Below, piece by piece: positions 42,236 through 64,000 of a stretch of 64,000 bases of DNA. This stretch comes from a virus. Under the pieces are notes generated by a model. That model had not been told where the DNA came from. It searched no databases and saw only the letters and a program-made list of their open reading frames with translations. The stretch's first letter is position 1, and each line of letters begins with the position of its first letter. Both the position numbers and the translations under genes were made by a program. Location of the stretch: IMG/VR virus record IMGVR_UViG_3300046328_000221, positions 30,046 to 94,045 of that record, one strand, 5' to 3'.

Positions 42236-42308
42236 TGCCCTATAACTCAATTGGCAGAGTGACGAGCTGTTAACTCGTAAGTTCCTGGTTCGAGTCCAGG
42301 TGGGGCAG
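42236..42308 (+). tRNA. tRNA-Asn(GTT)
   Basis: Cloverleaf; loop CTGTTAA; GGTTCGAGTCC T-arm. Confidence 0.92.
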
Positions 42309-42361
42309 CTAATGGTTCAGCCAGCACCACTCTCAGAGAGACAGAGATAAAAGCTGGCAAT

Positions 42362-42432
42362 GCGTGTGTTGCATAATGGTAGTGCCTCATCCTTCCAAGT
42401 TGAAGGTGCCAGTTCGATTCTGGTCACACGCT
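42362..42432 (+). tRNA. tRNA-Gly(TCC)
   Basis: GCGTGTG/CACACGC acceptor; loop CTTCCAA. Confidence 0.88.
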
Positions 42433-42606
42433 CTATAGGTTAATCACCTATACGTGTACAAGTGCACGTAAAATTGTCAACGCTTGTTGCTGTCCAGGCA
42501 GTAATTAATCTGGCGTGTAAGCACCTCACGACATAGGTTCGGAGTTGGTCACTCGTCTTAGGAAACGACTCAGGGATATAGATCTGATTAATCTGATATC
42601 CCACTA

Positions 42607-42675
42607 GGATAGATAGTTTAATAGGCAAAACGGCGTTGATCAGCCAGATTGGGAGTTCGACTCTCCCTCTATCCA
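42607..42675 (+). ncRNA. tRNA-like RNA with shortened anticodon arm (GAT in loop)
   Basis: Perfect acceptor GGATAGA/TCTATCC, D-arm and T-arm; anticodon arm is only GGC-GTTGATCA-GCC. Confidence 0.65.
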
Positions 42676-42768
42676 CGACTTACACCTGCAGTTCGTAATT
42701 GTTCGGCACCTCGCAAGAGATTAAGTTGTAAGCAAAAAGGTTGGTCCACCCTCGTACGAGAACGGCTA

Positions 42769-42846
42769 GGACTCGCTCTCAGGGCATCGTCGAATGAGAG
42801 TAGCCAGCTCCGTATGGTGCGTGGAGGTGCAAATCCTCAGAGTCCA
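42769..42846 (+). ncRNA. tRNA-like structured RNA
   Basis: GGACTC/GAGTCC+A closing stem; 7-bp arm; GCCA-GCTCCGTA-TGGT arm; GAGG-TGCAAAT-CCTC T-like arm. Confidence 0.55.
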
Positions 42847-42925
42847 CAAACAGAATTACTTCACTTATAGTCCGCACTATAAGCTATTAGGATTCTGGGC
42901 TATGGCTGATCACCATAGCTATTTT

Positions 42926-42999
42926 GTTTCTGTAACTCAGTTGGTTAGAGTGCCACCCTGTCACGGTGGAAGTCGTGGGTTCAAGTCCCATCAGAGACG
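42926..42999 (+). tRNA. tRNA-Asp(GTC)
   Basis: Canonical cloverleaf; loop CTGTCAC. Confidence 0.93.
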
Positions 43000-43077
43000 C
43001 AAAAAGTGGTGAAGTGGAGTATGTTGCAACTAAACTCTTCGTAAGAAATCCAGTGATGCTGGACATCCACTTTTTAT

Positions 43078-43154
43078 GCTACCTTAGCTCAGTTGGCCAG
43101 AGTTCCTCACTTGTAATGAGGGTGTCATCAGTTCGAATCTGATAGGTAGCTCCA
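43078..43154 (+). tRNA. tRNA-Thr(TGT)
   Basis: Canonical cloverleaf; loop CTTGTAA; encoded CCA. Confidence 0.93.
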
Positions 43155-45174: not shown

Positions 45175-45459
45175 ATGGATAAGAACGTCTGGAAAGATGA
45201 TGGACTTTGTGTAGGATATGATCATGATTTATTCTTTGACAAGTACGAAGAAGATGAAAAGTTAAGGCCTGCAATAGATAAGTTATGTTCAGGATGTCCT
45301 ATGGCAAGACAATGTTTTGCTGTTGGAGTATCTCAAAAAGAATGGGGAGTTTGGGGAGGCATCTATTTAGAAAATGGAAATATCTCTAGAGAGTTCGGGA
45401 AACATAGAACAAAGCAGGACTGGTCAGACACTTGGCAAAATCTAACAAATGATAAGTAG
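45175..45459 (+). CDS. whiB: WhiB-family Fe-S transcription factor
   Basis: C...C..CP...C and GVWGG motifs. Confidence 0.9.
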   Translation: MDKNVWKDDGLCVGYDHDLFFDKYEEDEKLRPAIDKLCSGCPMARQCFAVGVSQKEWGVWGGIYLENGNISREFGKHRTKQDWSDTWQNLTNDK

Positions 45460-52727: not shown

Positions 52728-52804
52728 TGGTACTCCCAGTGAGACTTGAACTCACACTGAATTGATTTTAAGTCAACTTCCTCTGCCGATTGGGATATGG
52801 GAGC
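52728..52804 (-). tRNA. tRNA-Leu(TAA), short variable loop
   Basis: Cloverleaf; loop CTTAAAA; encoded CCA. Confidence 0.88.
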
Positions 52805-52805
52805 G

Positions 52806-52879
52806 TAGTGCGAGAGGGATTTGAACCCTCATAGGCCACCTTATAAGAGTGGTTCATTGACCTGTTATGATATCGCACC
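52806..52879 (-). tRNA. tRNA-Ile(TAT)
   Basis: Cloverleaf; loop CTTATAA. Confidence 0.85.
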
Positions 52880-52886
52880 AAACGAA

Positions 52887-53426
52887 TTAAGCTTCTATTA
52901 AAGCCTTAATTCCTCTATACAAGTCATCAACACGCAGATCGTTAGAAATACTATGGTCAAACTTATACTCATCTAATGCCACTTCAGATGGATGGTTATT
53001 AACTGGTCCATGGTTTTGTTTTGAGATACGCCATACTTTTCCACCATGCTTCTTAATAGCATTAGCTTCATTTCTATAGCGTGTATCAGCAAAGACTACA
53101 TTCTCGTGTTGGCTAGCTTTTAGTAATCCCTGGTTAACCCAGAAGTCTTCTCCAAACATATCTCTACCAACTTCTGTGCCCATACGCTGTAGAAGCTTTC
53201 TTGTATCTTCGCTATCTACCTTAACATCTTCCCAGCCAAGTCCATCTACGGCAGAAGCAAGGGATACCCCACGCATATCTGCAATATCAACTTTTGGGTT
53301 GAGGCGGTATAAAGCTTCACGAATTGGATCAGCAAAAGATACCTTTACAAAACCATAGTTATTAACTAAATAATTAGCTACAGTATCCTTACCAACTTGA
53401 GCATAGCCACTAAGACCAATAATCAT
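52887..53426 (-). CDS. Deoxynucleoside monophosphate kinase
   Basis: IIGLSG...VGKDT; R.LLQ..GTE.GR; D.RY.NE; H.SE. Confidence 0.88.
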   Translation of the reverse strand: MIIGLSGYAQVGKDTVANYLVNNYGFVKVSFADPIREALYRLNPKVDIADMRGVSLASAVDGLGWEDVKVDSEDTRKLLQRMGTEVGRDMFGEDFWVNQGLLKASQHENVVFADTRYRNEANAIKKHGGKVWRISKQNHGPVNNHPSEVALDEYKFDHSISNDLRVDDLYRGIKALIEA

Positions 53427-54118
53427 TAAATCTCCTTTATAGCTTCCATTGTACGTGGAAAGACTGTGTTTGTCAACTCTTCAACTGCCTTTGCATATTC
53501 CTGAATCTCTACCTGTGCATCATGCGGTAAACGCTGTTCAAGGAATGTCATAACAGATTGTAAAGAAGCTGTCCAACGCCAACGAACATACATTCCATAT
53601 GCTGGCAAGAATAGACGTGCAAGTTCTGGAGCAATTCCATCATCCATTGCATCATGGTATGCCTGTGTGCTTTCAGCAATAATCTTAATTAACTTATTAG
53701 TATAAACCATACCAAGTGAGTCACTTACTGGATCACCACTACCCTGCTTAGAATTCTCAGGAGCACTTCTCCACTCGTCATGCAGAGGAACATAGAATTG
53801 TTCATCTTCTGTAATATAACGACGTGAAGACTCATTCCAACCATTCTGATCATCAACGTGCGACGATGCAACCGCATACTTCCACCACTGACGTGCAACA
53901 AATAGAGGTGCATAGACCTCAAAAGTTAGAGCTGCGTGTCTGAATGGACTTGTGTGTCCTTCTCTAGCAAGGAACCTAACGAGCTTTGAATCTCTTTCAG
54001 CGAATTCATTAGATTCTTTATCATAACTAACCCTAGCAGCATTGACAACAGATAGATCGTCGCCAAGAGTGTCCACAAGTCGTACATATCCCTCATCTAA
54101 TACCTCAATCTTATTCAT
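53426..54118 (-). CDS. thyX: FAD-dependent thymidylate synthase
   Basis: AARVSY; H.SPF.H; WNE.SRRY; APELAR; AQ.EI. Confidence 0.92.
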   Translation of the reverse strand: MNKIEVLDEGYVRLVDTLGDDLSVVNAARVSYDKESNEFAERDSKLVRFLAREGHTSPFRHAALTFEVYAPLFVARQWWKYAVASSHVDDQNGWNESSRRYITEDEQFYVPLHDEWRSAPENSKQGSGDPVSDSLGMVYTNKLIKIIAESTQAYHDAMDDGIAPELARLFLPAYGMYVRWRWTASLQSVMTFLEQRLPHDAQVEIQEYAKAVEELTNTVFPRTMEAIKEI

Positions 54119-54282
54119 TTTAATTCCTCAACTATCTTAATTGCAAGGGCAAGGCCTTCTTCTGTAAAGGTCATAGTCCTAGTTGTGTTATGGTCTAATT
54201 GTTTTTGTAAAGCATTAAGAATTTTTGTTCGCTCATCTTTACGAATTTTTTCTTCTTTAAGAAGTGCATGGATACTAATCAT
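54115..54282 (-). CDS. Small protein, divergent ERIIKLL-family member (55 aa)
   Basis: RKDERTKILNAL...GLALAIKIVEELK; coupled to both neighbours. Confidence 0.55.
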   Translation of the reverse strand: MISIHALLKEEKIRKDERTKILNALQKQLDHNTTRTMTFTEEGLALAIKIVEELK

Positions 54283-54575: not shown

Positions 54576-54863
54576 TTAGCCAAGAACTGCAAAGATGTCA
54601 CGGTATGCAAGAATAATATAGTCTTCTCCATCGTGAGTAATCTCTGTACCTTGATACTTAGAGAAGACAACCTTGTCTCCAACCTTTAGATCTGGGACAA
54701 CTAGGTCGCCATCATTGAGCCTGATTCCTGGACCAACAGCAACAACTATTGCTTCGTTTGGCTTTTCTTCCTGCATACCTGCAAGAACTAATCCAGAGGC
54801 AGAAGTCTTTTCAGCTTCTTTTTCTACTTTTACAATTACTTTATCTTCTAGTGGTTTAAGCAT
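54576..54863 (-). CDS. groES: Co-chaperonin GroES
   Basis: LKPLEDKVIV; VVAVGPG; KVGDKV.FSKY.GTE. Confidence 0.95.
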   Translation of the reverse strand: MLKPLEDKVIVKVEKEAEKTSASGLVLAGMQEEKPNEAIVVAVGPGIRLNDGDLVVPDLKVGDKVVFSKYQGTEITHDGEDYIILAYRDIFAVLG

Positions 54864-55012: not shown

Positions 55013-55086
55013 TGGCACCCCCTCAAGGAGTCGAACCTTGGCCCTCAGTTTTGGAGACTGATGTGCTACCGTAACACTTAGGAGAT
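55013..55086 (-). tRNA. tRNA-Trp(CCA)
   Basis: Cloverleaf; loop CTCCAAA; encoded CCA. Confidence 0.9.
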
Positions 55087-55235: not shown

Positions 55236-55754
55236 TTAGGCATTTGCTATATATGTTCCATTCACATAAATTTTGCTGATTGTTGTTAAGGTTTCAGGAG
55301 TACCTTGTACAAATAAGCCTTCTCTAATTGGAGAGTTAGCTCCGCCAGATTGCTTTAGATAGTGCAAATCTAAAGTAGTAGTAATCCCTGCGGTATCACA
55401 GTTAAGGATTGTGTGCCCAGTTCCATTATCAGGACTAATACTAGGATCAGGCCAACACCAGCCAGAAAAATGGTTATATCCAACAGCAGGAGTAAAAGGG
55501 AGGTCTAGCTTATATTGACCAGTACCAAAATTAGTTACGGTAGTAAGGTCAACCTCAATAACAAAACTAACTAATCTACCAGATTTAAGATAATAAGAAT
55601 TATAAGTTGGATATGTTCCATTTGCTCCAGTGAATGTCAAACCAGTAGCAGAAAATGTTGGAGAATATCTTGTCCAAGTTTCTAGTCCAGAAGTTCCGCT
55701 TGATCCTGTATCTCCTTTTGGACCCTGTGGCCCAGGATTAGTAAACCTAGCCAT
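55236..55754 (-). CDS. Fibre-like protein with short collagen segment
   Basis: GPQGPKGDTG; W..Y.PT; FGTG.Y...LP beta-sandwich head. Confidence 0.6.
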   Translation of the reverse strand: MARFTNPGPQGPKGDTGSSGTSGLETWTRYSPTFSATGLTFTGANGTYPTYNSYYLKSGRLVSFVIEVDLTTVTNFGTGQYKLDLPFTPAVGYNHFSGWCWPDPSISPDNGTGHTILNCDTAGITTTLDLHYLKQSGGANSPIREGLFVQGTPETLTTISKIYVNGTYIANA

Positions 55755-56032
55755 TATTTACCAGCCTCAAGGTTTAGTCTTAATACAGCAACATTGATTG
55801 CTTCAGATCCAACAATGTATAGGTCATTATTACCAGAAAGCTCTACAGAAAAAGCTTGTCCAGCAGAAAGACGGTAGCCATAGTTAGAACTGGTAACACC
55901 AACTCCACCAATATAAACATATCCAGTGGTACCAACATGCTGAATTGTAATGTCATAGCCAGCATCAAGGCCTGGAGTTATCTTTAGGGACCCTGTGCCA
56001 ATTGTAAATTTTTCGTGAATCGGAGCTGTCAT
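55754..56032 (-). CDS. Small beta-sandwich virion-type protein
   Basis: VYIGG.GVT..NYG..L.AG motif. Confidence 0.55.
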   Translation of the reverse strand: MTAPIHEKFTIGTGSLKITPGLDAGYDITIQHVGTTGYVYIGGVGVTSSNYGYRLSAGQAFSVELSGNNDLYIVGSEAINVAVLRLNLEAGK

Positions 56033-56054
56033 AATTTAGATTTCCTTCTAATTG

Positions 56055-56426
56055 TTAAAAGATGTTCCAGACATCCCAGTTTTTACCAATTGTAGCAGGA
56101 TCCATAGTCTTGATCCCATGCTCAGAATACGCACGACGCATAGTAGCGTTATTATCAATTGCTAATGACACAGACCCCTTTAGGCGTTGAGCAACTTGTG
56201 CTTTAAACTTAGCAGCATTGGCAGAAGAATATGGATTCATAATAAGTCTAGAATACTTTACTCCAGCTGCTCTTAGTGCTCTAATGGTTTCTGGTCTTTG
56301 AGATTGTGGTCTACCAGTGACAATTATTTTATCTCCAGGAAGGGAGTTAACGTAATCAATAGTACGCTTAATTGGTTGTGTACCGTTGCGAAGCAGGGTA
56401 TCATCAATATCTACAATAATTGCCAT
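56055..56426 (-). CDS. HAD phosphatase (PNK 3'-phosphatase-like)
   Basis: DIDDTL; VTGR; K; IDN motifs. Confidence 0.8.
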   Translation of the reverse strand: MAIIVDIDDTLLRNGTQPIKRTIDYVNSLPGDKIIVTGRPQSQRPETIRALRAAGVKYSRLIMNPYSSANAAKFKAQVAQRLKGSVSLAIDNNATMRRAYSEHGIKTMDPATIGKNWDVWNIF

Positions 56427-56463
56427 AGAGTAAGTATATCATGGATATGCTATACTAGAAGGT

Positions 56464-56652
56464 ATGAATTGTCCTATTTGTAATACTGCCATGGTAGAGA
56501 TCTGGTATGGTCTACCAACTTCAGCTAAGATTGAGAAAGCCAGGAATGACGAAATCGTTCTTGGTGGCACCAATCGTAAGCCATATACTCACTACTGCAA
56601 TGTCTGTCAGGAAACGTATCCTCAGACTAATGTGTCATTTTCTAATGAGTAG
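56464..56652 (+). CDS. Small Zn-ribbon protein
   Basis: CPIC...I.YGLP...LGG...YCNVC. Confidence 0.6.
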   Translation: MNCPICNTAMVEIWYGLPTSAKIEKARNDEIVLGGTNRKPYTHYCNVCQETYPQTNVSFSNE

Positions 56653-56741
56653 CGTGACAGCTACAAGAACATAAAACTACTGGATCTTTAATTGTTTTAA
56701 TACATTGCTCATGGTGTCCAGTAGTACACCAACCAAACAGA

Positions 56742-56927
56742 TTACTCATTTATAGATGAAGCATTAACCCTATTAATACCAGCAATGTATCCAGCTTTCC
56801 AAGCCTTCATTTCTTCAACTGTTGGGTTAGAAGCTAAAGCATCTAGCCAGATGCCCATATCTTTTTTAGCCTTAATAGCTACGTTATCAAGCATACGCTT
56901 AGTCTTACGCTTCTCATATCTATTCAT
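56742..56927 (-). CDS. Hypothetical protein
   Basis: ORF track; part of a minus-strand run of small genes. Confidence 0.5.
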   Translation of the reverse strand: MNRYEKRKTKRMLDNVAIKAKKDMGIWLDALASNPTVEEMKAWKAGYIAGINRVNASSINE

Positions 56928-57290
56928 CTATTGACTCTTCTTCCTGTTCAGGAACAGAGTTTTGCTCTGCATGTATGCCAGCCATTTTTGCCATGTCAGC
57001 CTCCCAGCTAGTTACAGTCGCAACGTAGTCACGAAACAGTTCTGTAAATTTTTCCATGTTCATAGTGTATCATTCCTCAGTAGTATTGTCAAGGTCTTGG
57101 ACAAATTTGTCTAACTCTGCACGGTACATAAACATCTTCAGAATCTCAGATCCAAGAACCTTATATTCTATACCATCATACTTAAGGGTATACTCTCTAT
57201 CTGGAAAGATGGGATAGTTAAACTTCATACCCAATTATATCATTAAGACTAATGCTTGACAAATGGTTCTGACCTCTGTATACTTGTTAT

Positions 57291-57461
57291 ATGATCTGTT
57301 GGTATTGTAATAAAGAGCTAGGGGATACTCCTAGTGTAACCTATTCTAAAAGAAAAGGCAACAAGACCCAACAGTTAACTGTTCATGGAAACTGCTATAG
57401 ATCCATGCGTAAACAAAAGATAGGGTATAAAGTAATTGCCCCAGGAAGTGTATCACAATGA
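57291..57461 (+). CDS. Small Cys-containing protein (56 aa, not in ORF track)
   Basis: Leaderless after TTGACA-17-TATACT; ATGA-coupled to the next gene. Confidence 0.55.
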   Translation: MICWYCNKELGDTPSVTYSKRKGNKTQQLTVHGNCYRSMRKQKIGYKVIAPGSVSQ

Positions 57462-57694
57462 AACTACCTAAGATATTTAGCTGGCGATTACGCCTTGTTC
57501 AGTCAGGTTACGATATGGGCTGGAACCATGGTTATGAAGCTGGGAAGATTGAAAGACAGAATGAAATTGTAGACCTATTGTCATACAAGATTGAGTCAGT
57601 TGACTGGCTACGAGAAGAGCCTATCAACATTAATGATGTTGTCCCATTAGTAAAGAATCACAAGATTAATCAAGAACCTATTGGATGGAAGTAA
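57458..57694 (+). CDS. Small protein, divergent ERIIKLL-family member
   Basis: GYEAGKIERQNEIVDLL...VVPLVK. Confidence 0.55.
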   Translation: MKLPKIFSWRLRLVQSGYDMGWNHGYEAGKIERQNEIVDLLSYKIESVDWLREEPININDVVPLVKNHKINQEPIGWK

Positions 57695-57945
57695 TGCAAC
57701 TACTACAGCGTAATAAACCTACCACTCTCGTATGTACAGCTAATACTGAATATGAGATGGAGTGGGATAGTGAAGAGCCACTATTTCTAATAGAGCACAA
57801 TGATAAGATAATCAAGGAGCTTGAGGGTCAGGGGTATCAAATGCATCCCTTAGTACCAGAAATCATAGTATGGAGCAAGTCCTTAGACTTTAAAACTACA
57901 TACGTAGCACGTAAAGAAGACTTTGACGAAATGGAGATGTTTTAA
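57694..57945 (+). CDS. Hypothetical protein
   Basis: TAATG coupling. Confidence 0.5.
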   Translation: MQLLQRNKPTTLVCTANTEYEMEWDSEEPLFLIEHNDKIIKELEGQGYQMHPLVPEIIVWSKSLDFKTTYVARKEDFDEMEMF

Positions 57946-58196
57946 TGTTTTATAGTTATAAACCTATTACCGTGGCAGAATTAATTGCCAAACTAAGTGA
58001 TCTGCCACAAGACGCTCACGTTGTTGTATCTAATGGTGATAGCGAATGGGGCGGAACACACCATAGCCATGTTTACGATATTGGTCTTGGTAGTCGTAAT
58101 GACAAGCCATTGGTATTTATTCACGATGGCCTGTGCAAAGATGACTGGTATGAAGAAGATAGCTGGGATGATGAAGGGGATGAAGATGAAGAATAA
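57945..58196 (+). CDS. Hypothetical protein
   Basis: TVAELIAKL..LP.DA.V motif; acidic tail. Confidence 0.55.
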   Translation: MFYSYKPITVAELIAKLSDLPQDAHVVVSNGDSEWGGTHHSHVYDIGLGSRNDKPLVFIHDGLCKDDWYEEDSWDDEGDEDEE

Positions 58197-58458
58197 TATT
58201 TCTATTAAGACAGTTAATGTTTCAGCATATGAACTTAGATATCCACCATATACAGACAACCTTGGCTTTCCTCCACTACAATTAGAATATATCTTAGTCG
58301 TAAATGGTGAAGAGATTCCAATCTCAAAGGATATGGCTTTTGGTATCGCTGGAGCACTTGACGAGTACAGGGAGCAGGTTCGTAATGAATTTGAAGAAAA
58401 GAGATTCCCCTATACTTTTCACAAAACTTTTGGGGCACACGAAGGAACAGACAAATGA
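58186..58458 (+). CDS. Hypothetical protein
   Basis: Probable start at 58186, overlapping the previous stop. Confidence 0.5.
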   Translation: MKNNISIKTVNVSAYELRYPPYTDNLGFPPLQLEYILVVNGEEIPISKDMAFGIAGALDEYREQVRNEFEEKRFPYTFHKTFGAHEGTDK

Positions 58459-58634
58459 AAACACAATTTGACATTGAAGACTATCTAGACTATCTAACTA
58501 ACCACCTACGCAAGACCCTTACCAAAGATTTCGGGGCAGATGGTGGACACATAGTAGATCTACTATCTAATACAACTACACAAATAGATGCTATCTTTTA
58601 CTGGATGGCTGATTATCCTGGGGAAGTTAAATGA
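58455..58634 (+). CDS. Hypothetical protein (59 aa, not in ORF track)
   Basis: ATGA-coupled on both sides. Confidence 0.55.
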   Translation: MKTQFDIEDYLDYLTNHLRKTLTKDFGADGGHIVDLLSNTTTQIDAIFYWMADYPGEVK

Positions 58635-58879
58635 GCGGATTTCAAAAAAGAGTAGCATTGCTTGAAAAGTGGGCACCAAGTCTATTGCCAAAGCTAAGGG
58701 ATATTGACGACATGGCTGAAATTATCCTAGACGTTTGGGATGAAGCAGAGGCACATACTGAGGAACGCATTATTAAGTTGCTAGACGAGTTTATTGAAAA
58801 CAGCGATTTACCAGAAGTTGTAGACCGTTTGGAATGGCTTAAAGGCAGTATCAAAGGAAAAACAAATGAGCCTGACTGA
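58631..58879 (+). CDS. ERIIKLL-family mini-protein
   Basis: HTEERIIKLL...SIKGKTNE. Confidence 0.7.
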   Translation: MSGFQKRVALLEKWAPSLLPKLRDIDDMAEIILDVWDEAEAHTEERIIKLLDEFIENSDLPEVVDRLEWLKGSIKGKTNEPD

Positions 58880-59045
58880 ATACAGGGTTGGCGATAAGGC
58901 TATTTGGAATGCTGGGCGTGAGTATGAACAGGAACGCATTATCAAGTTGCTAAAGCGACTATGGGAAAAGACTCAAGGAACAGATTTGCCAGCAGTAGTT
59001 GTTTTGCCTGAAGCAATCGAACTTATCAAGGGAGAAAACAAATGA
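58866..59045 (+). CDS. ERIIKLL-family mini-protein (59 aa, not in ORF track)
   Basis: GREYEQERIIKLL...AIELIKGENK. Confidence 0.75.
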   Translation: MSLTEYRVGDKAIWNAGREYEQERIIKLLKRLWEKTQGTDLPAVVVLPEAIELIKGENK

Positions 59046-59272
59046 GTGAAAAATGGAACATTGATTATGATAGCGGTTTTAACTCTGGTGCGGAGCATGA
59101 GCATAAAAAAATTATCAATATTTTAAAAGATAACTTTTCTTTTGCTATGGACTGCGAAACTCAAGAGTGCTTACAAAATGCGGCTAATTCAATTACTTGG
59201 AGCGAACGTTGGCAGTTATCTTTCAATCAACTTATCGAACTTATCAAGGGAGAAACTAATGAGCTTAGATAA
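59042..59272 (+). CDS. ERIIKLL-family mini-protein
   Basis: GAEHEHKKIINIL...LIELIKGETNE. Confidence 0.7.
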   Translation: MSEKWNIDYDSGFNSGAEHEHKKIINILKDNFSFAMDCETQECLQNAANSITWSERWQLSFNQLIELIKGETNELR

Positions 59273-59441
59273 TTTCCAAGAGGCTATGGATAGATTGACT
59301 GAAAAGGTTGAGATGCAGGATACTACGCTTAAAGTTCTCTCTGAGGCAGCAGATCGTATTGAGGATAAGCTCAATATTGTGGATATACCATATGGACAAC
59401 ATCCACCACAGAGGTTTCGGGATATCTCTAACGGAGAATAA
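59259..59441 (+). CDS. Hypothetical coiled-coil protein
   Basis: Starts at the shared AAGGGAGA RBS junction. Confidence 0.55.
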   Translation: MSLDNFQEAMDRLTEKVEMQDTTLKVLSEAADRIEDKLNIVDIPYGQHPPQRFRDISNGE

Positions 59442-59562
59442 GTTCGGCGTAAAATTCGGCGGTAAATAAGAGTTTCTACAAGCCACAGGCTTGACATTCT
59501 CTAGTATCCCTAGTATAATTAATAAACAAAGCCAATATTAAATACATTTAAGGAAAATACAC

Positions 59563-59805
59563 ATGGCAACTGAAGCACAACTAAAAGCAATTAATACTGA
59601 TTATGAAGTTGAATTTCAACACACAGTAAACATGATTCAAGAGAAGATCAATTTCTTGCTTGATCTATATAACAAAGACAATCTATCACCTTTTGATATG
59701 TATCGTAATCTATCAGCAGTAAAATGGCTTGATAGTGCATTAGAGGGTAATGTTGAGGTTATTCAGTTAACCCTAGAAAGAAAGAAACAAAAGGCTAACG
59801 CCTAA
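59563..59805 (+). CDS. Hypothetical protein
   Basis: TTGACA-17-TATAAT promoter at 59491-59519 and RBS. Confidence 0.6.
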   Translation: MATEAQLKAINTDYEVEFQHTVNMIQEKINFLLDLYNKDNLSPFDMYRNLSAVKWLDSALEGNVEVIQLTLERKKQKANA

Positions 59806-59896
59806 AACTTTCGGGGAATCAAGAGGAAGCTTCATAATCCCTAGTATAAGATATAAGAATTAACCCTAGTCATAATACACTTTGATTGGGGTTTTT

Positions 59897-60019
59897 TCAT
59901 AGGTCTTTGTCACAGGTTAGACAGAATGCTTTTCTATCAAAGCCATCTACTATATATGCTATAAAGTGATAACCCATAGCACATTTGATCTTATATTTGA
60001 TATAGCTGAATATCCACAT
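59897..60019 (-). CDS. Possible 40-aa Zn-binding peptide
   Basis: MWIFSYIKYKIKCAMGYH...FCLTCDKDL; leaderless after TATACT. Confidence 0.35.
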   Translation of the reverse strand: MWIFSYIKYKIKCAMGYHFIAYIVDGFDRKAFCLTCDKDL

Positions 60020-60290
60020 ATACCAAGTATACAGCATCAGAGCTGATCTAAATACCCTGAAAAGTTATACACATATAGCTAAAAGTTATCCACAAGTTTA
60101 TCTTACTGAATAATTATCTAGATAGACGTAAAGTGGAGATATATGGGAGATAGTGGATAATAATACATTATACTATAGGCCGATCGTAATGTCAAGCTTT
60201 TTATACCCATATCCATAAATACTTTTATCCCCAAATCCCCTATCACATTTATCCTGATTTGTCAAGTTTTTATTATATTTATCTACAAAT
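60010..60290. promoter_or_regulatory. Cluster of DnaA-box-like 9-mers (putative origin)
   Basis: TTATACACA at 60065 and TTATCCACA at 60086, plus single-mismatch copies, in AT-rich non-coding DNA. Confidence 0.55.
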
Positions 60291-60598
60291 TATCCTATTA
60301 TCTATACAAATCTAGGGAAAAATAGATCATATCGTAATGTTTTTATATCAGACATATCTACCTATGTGTTATTACTTATACTAGGGGGAAGTGTATAGAT
60401 TGTTTGTATACCCTGCCTTCGGCAGCTGGCTATGCCAGGTATATGTTTATCTTAGTATGCTCTATCAAATTGGCATATCAAAAATTGGGGGTATTTAATG
60501 TATGATCGTAATGTCTCTAGTAGTATATACACCATAGTAAAGTATAAGCTTATATGTTTATATAGGGGATATTTGTATATGATCGTAATACCCTGGAG

Positions 60599-60665
60599 AT
60601 CTGGGAAAAATACTTGACTTTCGTAATGTCTGAGAATCTGGGAAAAATACTTGACTTTCGTAATG
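60599..60665 (+). repeat. Tandem direct repeat ATCTGGGAAAAATACTTGACTTTCGTAATG x2
   Basis: Identical 30-mers at 60599 and 60636. Confidence 0.9.
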
Positions 60666-60736
60666 ATGTTTGGTATAATTCAATTTGGGTCGGCCACAGC
60701 TAGCCGCTTTTGTCAAGCGACTCTCTGCGGATCCCT

Positions 60737-61024
60737 TTACTCTTCTTCTGTGATAGCGGAAAGACCTAGCAATTCATCTAGGTTATCGAAACCATTATCC
60801 TCAACATCTAATGCTGTGATAAGCAAATCGAAAGTTTCACCTATGAACGCAGTTGCTTTTGGTGAAGTATCTACAATGTCATTCGCAATAGCATAGGCAA
60901 GTGGCAAACCTAAGTCGTTGTATTCAATGAAGTCAATGAAGTCCTCATCTTGACGATAGTTGAGCCATAGTTCTGCTAGGATACTAACCTGATTAGCAAA
61001 AGGTGTCGTGGCTGATTCTGTCAT
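60737..61024 (-). CDS. Hypothetical protein
   Basis: IL.ELW.NY...F.DF.EYNDLGLPLAY motif; probable start MTES at 61024. Confidence 0.65.
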   Translation of the reverse strand: MTESATTPFANQVSILAELWLNYRQDEDFIDFIEYNDLGLPLAYAIANDIVDTSPKATAFIGETFDLLITALDVEDNGFDNLDELLGLSAITEEE

Positions 61025-61202
61025 AGTTGCTTTCCTTTTCTTGTTCTGCTGATTCAATGATAATGGATAAACGCCTGTAAGTCAAATTAGGGTGATTACG
61101 AGCCAGATAGATTCCAACCTTATCCAAATCTAATCTTACATCTGATACAATGTGCGATAACTTTTCTGCTATCTTTTCTGCTTCTGTTTTTACTTTACGC
61201 AT
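60993..61202 (-). CDS. Hypothetical protein
   Basis: SDVRLDL..VG.YL motif; promoter upstream. Confidence 0.6.
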   Translation of the reverse strand: MRKVKTEAEKIAEKLSHIVSDVRLDLDKVGIYLARNHPNLTYRRLSIIIESAEQEKESNYDRISHDTFC

Positions 61203-61358
61203 TTGTTTCCCTTATTCAGTTATGGACATCTATTGTATCAAAAGTGGAAGGAGAAGTCAAGACCTGCGAGAATCTTGACCTCCCCCACTTTGCACACAGG
61301 CAACCCCTTACCTTGTGCGATTGACAGGGAGCGAACTCAACCCATCAAGTTTATTTAG

Positions 61359-61568
61359 TTATGCTACTTTCTGTCCCTTACGCAATGTAGCAAGACTAAT
61401 AGAATCAATAAACTTTCCATTACGACGATATACGATTCGCTCTGAAGTTCCATAGCGTGTGTTCCATACTTCTAGATACGGTACCACTGGTCCCATGGCC
61501 TTGCCCTTTTTGGTCAACTTGGTTAGACGCTTTGGTTGTGCTTTACGTGCCTTTGGAAATACTGCCAT
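61359..61568 (-). CDS. Small basic protein
   Basis: AGGAG RBS; promoter upstream. Confidence 0.6.
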   Translation of the reverse strand: MAVFPKARKAQPKRLTKLTKKGKAMGPVVPYLEVWNTRYGTSERIVYRRNGKFIDSISLATLRKGQKVA

Positions 61569-61645
61569 TTTATGTCTCCTTATAAATTATTGGGTTATAG
61601 TTGTTGCTATTCTATTATTTCATATTTAGTTGTGTTTGTCAATAC

Positions 61646-61981
61646 CTAAAATAAAACTTCTTCGTGATAGACAGGTAACCCATAAAAGATACTCTTCAGT
61701 CTATCGCTAAGCAATGTGTCTTTATCAGCTAAGAAACCATTCAGGCCATACCATAGGTCTGGTTCATGGTTCTGGAAGTATGGGTCATTGTTGATAAGAT
61801 TATTAGACTCAGTAGGAGTTAGTTCAATTGGTGCCCCTAGTTCTTCGTGCGTCGTTGCTCCTTGGTATGAGTTCACCTGATAGATGTGAATGTACCATGG
61901 GCCTCCGTACTCATACTCATCTTCAGCATTCAGTAGTTCACGTTGGAAGATATTGAGATCGTAGTCAAATTCAGTACCCAT
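61646..61981 (-). CDS. Hypothetical acidic protein
   Basis: GAGGAG RBS. Confidence 0.6.
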   Translation of the reverse strand: MGTEFDYDLNIFQRELLNAEDEYEYGGPWYIHIYQVNSYQGATTHEELGAPIELTPTESNNLINNDPYFQNHEPDLWYGLNGFLADKDTLLSDRLKSIFYGLPVYHEEVLF

Positions 61982-62104
61982 TAGTCTTGCTCCTCAATCT
62001 CTAGCCATTGAAACGTTTCGCCATCTTCAGTATACTGCGACATGTTTGTTAGTTCTTGCAACCACCCTTGGTCAACAAGTAGTATTACTTTATACTTTTT
62101 CATA

Positions 62105-62530
62105 TTAGTACCAAGCCTCTCCTGTGTGGTCTTCACAGCCACAGCAGTTCAAACAATACCCATTCTGCTTATCACAGCGGAATACATCCATAATTAGTTC
62201 ACCGTCTAGAGTCTCTGCTTCACCACATGCTTCACAGCATTCTGGAGACATCTCTAAGTCAATCTCATAGGAGGTTGAATCTATCCACGGTACTTCAGTA
62301 ATAAAATAACCAATACGATTCACATAGTGGAATCCTTCGACAGTCACAGTTCCACCGTCAGTATTTAGATAAGTCCAGATGTTATTAGGCTTGGCTTTCA
62401 TAACAAACTCTAGTTCTTCCCCATACGTCTCAAACATTTGTTGGTCAGGGTCATTACTAAACTTATTAGGCTCAGGCTTGAATTGCTCTACAAACTCTGA
62501 CCAAGTTAGCGATAGTTCGTTAGTAGTCAT
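62105..62530 (-). CDS. Hypothetical protein with Cys-rich tail
   Basis: FETYGEEL.FV...G.HYVNRIGYFITE.PW motif. Confidence 0.65.
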   Translation of the reverse strand: MTTNELSLTWSEFVEQFKPEPNKFSNDPDQQMFETYGEELEFVMKAKPNNIWTYLNTDGGTVTVEGFHYVNRIGYFITEVPWIDSTSYEIDLEMSPECCEACGEAETLDGELIMDVFRCDKQNGYCLNCCGCEDHTGEAWY

Positions 62531-62598
62531 TGGGTTCCTATCTTAGAAGTGGAAGTCTTTGGGTTATAAAAGTAGTCTACAGGTTATTTCTCTTTTTG

Positions 62599-62997
62599 TC
62601 AAGACTTATTTCTAAATTTAATTAGGGCTTCCTTCTTGCATACCTTGCAATCCAGCTGTCCAGTTTTCTTATTTATATAATCTCTCTTATGTCCTCTTTT
62701 GCAATACTCTTTACGCTTATACTCATACTCATATAGGTTGCGTCTTCTAGAGTTCTCACCCTTAGTGACTGCTTCTAAATGTTTTGGATTAACGCAAAGG
62801 GTATTATTACAGAGATGATCAATAGTTAAATCATTTAGTACTTGTCCTGTATAGTATTCATAAGAGAATCTGTGTGCTTTATTACCATGTTCATGCCTAA
62901 ACATTCCATACCCTGCCCAGGTGCTGGCTATCCAATTCCAACATCCAGACACTGGGTCTACGGTATACTTAGATGTAAATCTGTCTATTATTTCCAT
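62599..62997 (-). CDS. HNH homing endonuclease
   Basis: CWNW; GYG; AHR.SY; IDHLC.N..CVNP.HL; C.RGH. Confidence 0.9.
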   Translation of the reverse strand: MEIIDRFTSKYTVDPVSGCWNWIASTWAGYGMFRHEHGNKAHRFSYEYYTGQVLNDLTIDHLCNNTLCVNPKHLEAVTKGENSRRRNLYEYEYKRKEYCKRGHKRDYINKKTGQLDCKVCKKEALIKFRNKS

Positions 62998-63025
62998 AAG
63001 TATATTGTACCATAACTATTCATTT

Positions 63026-63169
63026 CTAAAAGTGCATATCACAAGGCACTAGATACCATGAATCGTCAAGCGTGTCAAGAACCCATTTAGGATTTGTTGA
63101 CCAGTTGCTTAGGTCATAGAAGTATGAGTTCATATCCCATTTACCCTGCAACCATTCCCCATAGAAACA
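63026..63169 (-). pseudogene. C-terminal remnant of a gene (...LQGKWDMNSYFYDL...WYLVPCDMHF)
   Basis: Protein-like frame with no proper start; begins at a 24-bp repeat. Confidence 0.45.
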
Positions 63170-63442
63170 TCATTTGTTCTCTCCCTTGATAAGAGCAATC
63201 AGATGTTCTCCGTACCAGTTTTCAAAGTCTCCACAGGTGCAGCCAACAAAACCACCTTCAATACCTGCTTCTGGCTCATGCGACTCCATCAGTCCAAAAA
63301 TGCGTTCACGCTCATTGGTAATTGTCTTAGCTTTATATTTTGCTAACCAAAGGTCAAACATTCGGTTTGCGTAAGTGCTATCTACTCTTTCGGCTGAGTA
63401 TGCGTCACGCACATCTGCTGTTTTTGGTATAAGGTCACTCAT
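63170..63442 (-). CDS. ERIIKLL-family mini-protein
   Basis: ERERIFGLM...CTCG...LIALIKGENK. Confidence 0.7.
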   Translation of the reverse strand: MSDLIPKTADVRDAYSAERVDSTYANRMFDLWLAKYKAKTITNERERIFGLMESHEPEAGIEGGFVGCTCGDFENWYGEHLIALIKGENK

Positions 63443-63687
63443 TTTGTTTCTCCCTTGATAAGTTCAAGTGCTAGGTTGATGCCGTCTTTAAGCGACCAAG
63501 CACCATCTTCTTCATAGTAGGCACCCTCAATGCTTTCTAAAAGTTTGATAATCCGCTCCTCGGCGTGTTTCACACCTAACTGAAACTCTGATACCCCACA
63601 ACATTCGCAAGGTTCGGTGAACTCTTTTGGTGGGTTATTGATGATGTTGTAAATGTGTGTGTCTTTGTTGTTGTTATTTATACTCAT
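63439..63687 (-). CDS. ERIIKLL-family mini-protein
   Basis: GVKHAEERIIKLL...ALELIKGETK. Confidence 0.75.
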   Translation of the reverse strand: MSINNNNKDTHIYNIINNPPKEFTEPCECCGVSEFQLGVKHAEERIIKLLESIEGAYYEEDGAWSLKDGINLALELIKGETK

Positions 63688-63905
63688 TTCTTTTCCTCCG
63701 CTTTCCAGGTATCAATAAGGTCAATTGCCTCACAAAAACAAAAACCCTTTGTGTTGTGAGTTCCAATTGTGCATTTGTTATTTTCTCGTAGCATTGCCAT
63801 CAATTCCTCCTTGGCATACTCTGTGCCATTGAAAAACCCTGTATTGTATTCAGCCTCAATTGCTTTGCCAATTACTTTGTTTTGTTCTTTTGTAAACTCA
63901 GACAT
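63684..63905 (-). CDS. ERIIKLL-family mini-protein (divergent)
   Basis: GTEYAKEELMAML...CFCEAIDLI. Confidence 0.6.
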   Translation of the reverse strand: MSEFTKEQNKVIGKAIEAEYNTGFFNGTEYAKEELMAMLRENNKCTIGTHNTKGFCFCEAIDLIDTWKAEEKK

Positions 63906-63999
63906 TTGTTTTCTCCTTACGGTAATCCATCCACTTGAAAAGCAGAATCAGCGGTGAAGCAAGGTATAGCCCTGCAACCATTCCCCATAGAAATGTCAT
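63898..63999 (-). CDS. 33-aa membrane peptide MTFLWGMVAGLYLASPLILLFKW...
   Basis: Hydrophobic ORF whose end carries the RBS for the next gene. Confidence 0.5.
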   Translation of the reverse strand: MTFLWGMVAGLYLASPLILLFKWMDYRKEKTNV

Positions 64000-64000
64000 T

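Follow-up and report, generated by a model that had tools for sequence, protein, structure and literature searches.

The DNA analysed here (the window) is a stretch of 64,000 nucleotides (nt), bases 30046-94045 of the 94,045-base-pair (bp) IMG/VR virus contig IMGVR_UViG_3300046328_000221. At 58631-59272 on the plus strand it carries an array of three very small genes, here called A, B and C, which are marked by two short tracts of nearly constant DNA, the 5' and 3' anchors, and which belong to a large family of small proteins probably assembled by module exchange at these anchors. As an earlier note on this DNA had described, the genes are consecutive open reading frames of 59-82 amino acids (aa) that overlap end to end: A at 58631-58879 (82 aa), B at 58866-59045 (59 aa) and C at 59042-59272 (76 aa). 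Gene A has a long variable N-terminal part (the front), an EERIIKLL helix, a short variable central part (the core) and a degenerate 3' anchor. Gene B is a minimal member with both anchors present, and gene C combines a diverged 5' anchor with a 36-aa core containing two cysteines and a canonical 3' anchor.

The 5' anchor, which consists of the codons for E-R-I-I-K-L-L, is found at 58761-58783 (+) in gene A and at 58930-58952 (+) in gene B, where it also forms the left edge of a 118-bp block common to the relatives L007 and L008. The two copies agree at 22 of 23 positions. The 3' anchors of B and C (59016-59037 and 59234-59255) agree at 22/22, and the near-identity claimed for the anchors as DNA is thus borne out; matches of such quality were obtained in none of 100 shuffles. 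Both 3' anchors run on into a gene junction. The first (59016-59047, +) comprises the helix end, a GGAG ribosome-binding site and the overlapping ATGA stop/start between B and C, while the second (59234-59263, +) leads from C to a coupled gene of 60 aa (59259-59441, +; ATG at 59259), which is served by the gene C anchor and is not a family member. The junction from A to B (AAAGGAAAAACAAATGAG, 58846-58872, +) is degenerate. The anchors are the sole repeats in the locus, where inverted repeats are weak and scattered.

The earlier note assigned one layout to all three genes. This holds for B, but the 3' anchor of A is degenerate (..KGSIKGKTNE..) and the 5' anchor of C has diverged to HKKIINIL, in protein and DNA alike. 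Similarly, the cores were said to have no visible similarity. B and C do indeed align at the anchors only, but the cores of A and B give a weak BLASTP alignment through a common DLP.VV stretch.

A second array of three genes (D, E and F) is located on the minus strand at 63170-63905, extending into the terminal repeat of the contig. Gene D (63439-63687, 82 aa) has a front with a C.CC motif, the sequence EERIIKLL, and a canonical 3' anchor at 63447-63468, which is a third copy with two mismatches. Its EERIIKLL is encoded by different codons at 5 of the 8 positions, so that only A and B share the 22/23 match in DNA. Gene E (63170-63442, 90 aa) has the form ERERIFGLM .. C.C core .. LIALIKGENK. 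Gene F (63684-63905, 73 aa) belongs to a core sub-family with invariant C, H, C and C, and its anchors are diverged. The second array is duplicated by the 831-bp terminal repeat and so continues at the start of the contig (L001 1-736). The two arrays point towards each other, with a gap between them at about 60-60.7 kb.

Two profiles were used to explore the family: A1, built from seven window sequences, and A2, built from 60 sequences. Profile A1 recovered 189 representative clusters at E ≤ 0.001, and A2 recovered at least 4,809 (clustered at 90% identity), with only 8,000 candidates scored. A search of the genome with A2 returned six members, A to F. The E-values were 1.2e-20 for B, 1.9e-9 for C, 1.1e-9 for D and 1.4e-10 for E, with partial matches only for A (2.2e-4) and F (2.3e-4). 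The seventh sequence in A1 is a look-alike, gene G (57458-57694, +, 78 aa), which contains ..ERQNEIVDLL.. and ..PLVKNHK.. and lies in the same coupled gene chain as A to C. Its membership is weak: it is unmatched by A2, and its homologue P0093 was recovered only by A1, which included G. A weak candidate at 54115-54282 was rejected, as the family profile gives no match there, and so was P0071 (1,115 aa, six matches), which is a HEAT-repeat false positive. A metagenome scan gave at least two loci; relatives of gene C were not found among the viral contigs.

The family has no match in Pfam, PHROG or NCBIfam. The source names of the clusters are 'hypothetical protein' or evidently spurious, and no Pfam domain is present in any of them. 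Members occur almost exclusively on viral contigs, the nearest Atlas clusters being 100% viral. Among cellular genomes there was one match, on a 29-kb contig of a metagenome-assembled genome of Actinomycetota, and none in 150 other genomes of that order. A literature search on the motifs found nothing relevant. The family is unannotated and new, as yet unnamed, and comes from uncultured phages.

Members are 46-130 aa long and follow a common plan: a variable front, a helix of the form G...ERERIIKLLE, a variable core of 14-53 aa, and a second helix ending in (A/L)I(A/E)LIKGE plus two residues. The tail after KGE is exactly two residues long in 71 of 103 proteins, and 45/103 have at least two cysteines in the core. 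Genes B, D and E end in ..KGE.K followed by ATGA; A and C have a ..TNE.. variant, with the next ATG inside the tail. The earlier suggestion that these are small helical-hairpin proteins agrees with the AlphaFold2 predictions, in both of which two helices form a hairpin that has the core at its turn: gene B is predicted to have helices at residues 11-36 and 43-55 (predicted local distance difference test, pLDDT, 78.5), and gene F two helices with a knuckle at the turn (pLDDT 83.5).

Some variations on the plan were observed. In some members (L005 5343-5714; L026 4159-4473; P0190) a sense codon takes the place of the stop that follows ..KGENK, and the run-on protein continues into a cysteine-rich module of about 35 aa, which again ends in ..GE.K. 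Tandem fused double units are found in P0074, P0085, P0086, P0100, P0115 and P0183. A cysteine-rich front module is a stand-alone gene of 93 aa in L008 (190-471) yet forms the front of the full member P0167; fronts can therefore be independent domains.

The evidence for module exchange is clearest at the level of DNA. When an 8-kb region was compared with about 20 otherwise unrelated viral contigs, the anchors appeared as islands, the only matching segments, of 25-38 bp with 88-100% identity. The few longer shared blocks start in one anchor and stop at the next. Thus gene B is 95% identical to L007 over 58930-59047, against 38% upstream and 40% downstream; its core block is 90% identical in L008, and the right edge of the shared block falls just past the ATGAG of the next gene. 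Gene D shares its front with one gene of L005 (86%, the cores being 41% identical) and its core with another gene of L005 (92%, fronts 39%). The front of gene A is matched in L045 and L046 (83% and 88%), where the cores are unrelated (32% and 37%), and its core in L047 (83%), where the front is unrelated (36%). The earlier note had proposed looking in relatives for precise anchor-to-anchor replacements, and for A, B and D these are what is seen, as blocks of 83-95% identity with flanks of 32-41%.

The same pattern extends to the proteins. A set of 247 proteins was split at the anchors and the halves were clustered separately, giving 124 clusters of fronts and 155 of cores. The 23 multi-member fronts are without exception joined to at least two core clusters (up to 24 cores), and 34 of the 37 multi-member cores are joined to at least two fronts (up to 10). 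The D-seeded protein set over-samples one front cluster; a second, profile-seeded set gave the same pattern of re-assortment. In a clean set of four, P0220, P0255, P0060 and P0212, every one of the four possible pairings of two fronts with two cores occurs. Gene B has a core that is found behind ten unrelated fronts, and the core of gene E is also found in P0068 and P0082, there with other fronts. Other cores are likewise joined to each of the fronts of A, B, C and D, in the case of C for example in P0080 and P0113. Core swapping within the family, proposed in the earlier note, is thus supported in the form of a combinatorial re-assortment of fronts and cores, a pattern that divergence alone cannot produce.

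Array content is not fixed among relatives either. In G005, whose polymerase is 84% identical, the syntenic place holds one member only, with a B-like front and a different core. In L008 the array is replaced by unrelated genes, and a gene with the B core stands on the other side of a conserved neighbour. The complete genomes G002 and G007 are without this polymerase, yet family modules are present in them; the modules therefore cross phage lineages.

A further prediction concerned synonymous sites, and these are fixed in the anchors far beyond what the protein needs and beyond the other codons of the same genes. Codons were counted in 23 distinct members for which DNA is available. The anchor codons are CGT (11/13), GAA (19/23), CGC (19/23) and ATT (17/23) followed by ATC (18/23), and further CTT (17/23), ATC (22/23), GGA (20/23), AAC (12/12) and TGA (12/13). 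The remainder of the same genes has ordinary codon frequencies, for example 0.18 for CGC, 0.23 for ATC and 0.15 for GGA. The two adjacent isoleucine codons of the 5' anchor differ in their preferred form, ATT and then ATC, which argues against general codon optimisation and points to identity by descent or to constraint on the DNA itself.

The 3' anchor has a second role. The in-frame sequence AAGGGAGA sets GGAG 7-9 nt ahead of the next start, and of 26 cases of the 3' anchor, 23 lead into an overlapping or abutting start (ATGA, GTGA or TAATG) that belongs to an open reading frame of at least 30 aa. It was correctly recognised in the earlier note that the anchor doubles as the ribosome-binding site and start junction of the next gene. 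The further claim, that each unit is self-expressing wherever it lands, has to be qualified: the signal serves the downstream neighbour and not the gene that carries it, but coupling is kept if the unit is bounded by two 3' anchors, since a unit so defined is exactly one gene with its coupling preserved. The next gene is a family member in 4/26 cases and a non-family gene in 22/26. Two non-family genes of the same chain (58197-58458 and 58455-58634, +) end in ..EGTDK and ..PGEVK before an overlapping ATGA, which shows that in this phage the G..K end results from the ribosome-binding site as a by-product. The protein end ..KGE.K arises because the in-frame GGAG and the overlapping stop/start serve the next gene, and the last residues of the C-terminal motif of the family are set largely by a translation signal.

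On the basis of these observations, we consider it probable that the window carries two arrays of a very large mosaic family of hairpin proteins, in which fronts and cores are re-joined by homologous recombination at anchors that are constant as DNA. The variable front, the ERERIIKLLE helix, the core at the turn (often rich in cysteine and histidine) and the second helix would together form a hairpin scaffold, encoded in chains of overlapping, translationally coupled small genes in a region of early type. Two short tracts are near-constant as DNA, a 5' tract of about 23-28 bp and a 3' tract that with its junction measures about 25-38 bp, of the form CTTATCAAGGGAGA..AAATGA, and this constancy extends to otherwise unrelated phage contigs. 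Homologous recombination inside these tracts would repeatedly re-join fronts to foreign cores and also move whole genes, with a combinatorial family as the outcome; the 3' tract has the second job of providing the ribosome-binding site and start of the next gene. General homology-dependent enzymes, for example a UvsX/RecA-like protein of the phage, are candidate catalysts. Exchange at tracts of 23-38 bp is consistent with the action of phage recombinases on short or diverged homology (PMC3945230) and with the UvsX/RecA-like gene of this genome (28100-29104, +; phrog_97, E 1.8e-56). The recombinational shuffling through short anchors that had been suggested earlier therefore stands in part, on the mosaic edges at the anchors, the fixed silent sites and the variable arrays.

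Several points weigh against this interpretation. The breakpoints in DNA cover three genes and seven comparisons, the remaining case being made at the protein level, and all comparators are metagenome assemblies. The nominal binomial p-values for the anchor codons, 1e-8 to 1e-14, take the members as independent, which they are not; independence of members in this test corresponds to the null of old paralogues. The ribosome-binding role alone explains some of the constancy that the 3' anchor shows as DNA. No member was found when GenBank phages were searched with DNA and protein, no cultured phage has the family, and Foldseek searches of the PDB and BFVD gave generic hairpins only, all above E = 3, and no meaningful relative.

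The strongest alternative is that the anchors are kept by a role in cis, as ribosome-binding site, coupling signal, binding site or RNA element, and that recombination is incidental. This would fit the presence of GGAG and an overlapping next start within the 3' anchor (23/26), the predominance of non-family genes downstream (22/26), and the use of the same junction design by unrelated genes of the chain. However, the 5' anchor lies in the middle of the gene with no start near it, and its codons (CGT GAA CGC ATT ATC) are equally fixed, as is the CTTATC just upstream of the ribosome-binding site. Furthermore, TTATCAAG, an 8-mer common to both anchors, is not enriched outside family genes, and exchanges at the anchors are observed whatever it is that keeps the anchors constant. 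We therefore regard a purely cis-acting explanation as improbable.

Recognition of the anchors by a dedicated enzyme that drives the exchange (a free-standing HNH endonuclease, for example, or some other site-directed nuclease or recombinase) is very unlikely. A free-standing HNH endonuclease gene does lie directly downstream of the second array (62599-62997, -), and another is found in the relative L009 (5541-6011, -), about 1.3 kb from a family member; the sharing of TTATCAAG by both anchors also speaks for it. However, HNH genes are frequent in phages of this kind, the family is spread over phage lineages with differing replication modules, and an identity of 23-38 bp suffices for homology-dependent exchange by phage recombinases (PMC3945230). 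Nor were an integrase, RecT or a reverse transcriptase found, the genome giving no match to RecT, to the tyrosine integrase profile Phage_integrase or to the reverse transcriptase profile RVT_1.

Ordinary old paralogues, whose motifs are held by protein constraint while the remainder has drifted and no modules are exchanged, are more doubtful still. The motifs are amphipathic helix segments with invariant residues (E, E, R, L, L and I, K, G, E), and a weak alignment between the A and B cores can still be made, as this explanation would expect. It is, however, already contradicted by the occurrence of one core behind up to 10 unrelated fronts and of one front before up to 24 unrelated cores, by the set with all four combinations, by DNA blocks of 83-95% identity beside flanks at chance level, and by the position-by-position fixation of codons in the anchors. 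Finally, misjoining of short-read assemblies at short repeats scarcely deserves credence as the source of the mosaics, for although the relatives are all of this kind and the anchors (22-38 bp) are near a small assembly k-mer size, the anchors are far shorter than usual sequencing reads, the same combinations recur in independent samples and sources (P0044 on 7 contigs, P0269 on 27), and six members with different parts stand in coherent coupled operons of one contig.

Module exchange at the anchors has parallels in known systems. In the gp38 adhesins of T2/T6-type phages, strictly conserved glycine-rich motifs make up the structural core and lie between hypervariable segments, which are easily interchanged and each come from a restricted palette (Trojet et al. 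2011, PMC3157838); recombination between the conserved motifs is described there, with reference to Tetart et al. 1998, as exchanging segments among phages. The likeness is that within one small gene short conserved motifs delimit variable segments, which are exchanged by recombination, although the evidence here is comparative. There is no relation of sequence or fold, and the anchors described here are helical rather than glycine-rich. They are two in number as against five, and one of them is also the ribosome-binding site of the next gene. The family is found as multi-copy arrays in an early-type region of small genes, whereas gp38 belongs to the tail-fibre locus and binds the host receptor.

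A second parallel is offered by the promoter-early stem-loops (PeSLs) of the hyperplastic regions of T4-type phages, conserved expression elements round small orphan genes, at which homologous exchange preferentially takes place (Arbiol et al. 2010, PMC2839356; Comeau et al. 2014, PMC4122927). In both systems short conserved elements carry expression signals, and genes are gained, lost or replaced between relatives at these elements, as seen here in the differing arrays of L008 and G005; in the T4-type phages the genes concerned stay expressed. PeSLs are intergenic, about 100 bp long, and consist of a promoter and a stem-loop terminator. The anchors, in contrast, are coding, three to four times shorter (23-38 bp), provide a translational signal, and divide genes into sub-genic modules. 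Relaxed homologous recombination by phage recombinases has also been put forward to explain mosaicism (De Paepe et al. 2014, PMC3945230). There too, phage genomes that have otherwise diverged exchange DNA where homology is short or imperfect, but that work concerns Rad52-like recombinases, temperate phages and modules on the scale of genes, whereas here a UvsX/RecA-like gene is present, no RecT was found, and the modules are sub-genic (40-110 bp). The logic of shuffling matches that known from gp38 and the PeSLs; the coding, translational anchors and the sub-genic cutting are points of difference, and the family itself is new.

Some other candidates were considered and set aside. A diversity-generating retroelement would likewise have a variable region between constant flanks of a phage protein, but the cores here vary in length and are unrelated, rather than varying at adenine-templated positions; no reverse transcriptase was found in the genome and no template repeat in the locus. 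An integron-like cassette array was rejected because the genome has no Phage_integrase match and the inverted repeats of the locus are weak and scattered, and a RecT-type annealing protein because none is present in the genome. A Chi-like role of TTATCAAG was also rejected: there are 9 copies against 4.45 expected, and the excess consists of the five family copies. RNA pairing between the two anchors was dismissed by eye, as the anchors share sense and not complementarity.

As to function, the small size of the proteins, the hairpin scaffold with its variable parts and the early-type context tentatively suggest that they act early as diversified small binders of host or defence targets. A still more speculative proposal is that the anchors are selected recombination-and-expression signals of a pool of sub-genic cassettes, common to many unrelated phage lineages and feeding a re-assortable library of binders. 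Fronts, cores and whole genes would then circulate as a pool, possibly via excised circles as proposed for PeSLs, and each phage could quickly re-assort its own set of small hairpin binders aimed at the host or its defences.

Small early proteins are the least understood part of phage genomes, and in the present case a single family, which can now be named and modelled, takes in thousands of them; its plan is simple, with a front and a turn that vary and two helices that stay constant. The family presents a clear natural case of the exchange of sub-genic modules of 40-110 bp at coding anchors with fixed silent sites, and also a case in which the ribosome-binding site of the following gene dictates most of a protein's C-terminal motif. 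As a natural variable-loop scaffold it lends itself to binder screens and to looking for targets in freshwater actinobacteria, whose phage-host biology is not easily accessible by culture, and the two anchors provide a sequence handle for retrieving more members from metagenomes.

The contig carries an 831-bp terminal direct repeat, and the genome is therefore about 93.2 kb long. It encodes a head maturation protease, a DnaB-like helicase, a DnaE-like polymerase, the UvsX/RecA-like recombinase and a ribonucleotide reductase. The best matches of the polymerase are in Streptomyces phages, at 55% identity; the two Streptomyces phages with the closest polymerase contain no family member. A gene at about 45190-45363 (+) scores above the Pfam cut-off for the WhiB family. 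The WhiB gene, the DnaE-like polymerase nearest to those of Streptomyces phages and the guanine-plus-cytosine (GC) content of about 0.39 together indicate that the host is probably a low-GC actinobacterium.

A near-consensus site resembling a sigma-70-type promoter (57256-57284, +; 11/12, a consensus match only) heads a chain of about 10 overlapping small genes. Perfect TTGACA-17-TATAAT sites are found at 59491-59519 (+), after the chain with array A-C, and at 60195-60167 (-). The three promoter-like sites (57256, 59491 and 60195) stand at the heads of small-gene chains. Inside the array there are promoter-like matches only below consensus (9 to 10 of 12), none of them at an anchor, and a scan of 55500-64000 found no terminator-like sites in the arrays. 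A 20-nt stretch round the -10 element, ATCCCTAGTATAA.., is repeated at 59837.

Among the remaining features, there are eight transfer RNA genes in 42236-43154, 52728-52879 and 55013-55086; one of the ARAGORN calls, at 42607-42676, gives an odd, two-base reading of the anticodon loop. By eye only, the gene at 53426-54118 (-) has the appearance of a ThyX-like thymidylate synthase, and that at 54576-54863 (-) of a GroES-like co-chaperonin.

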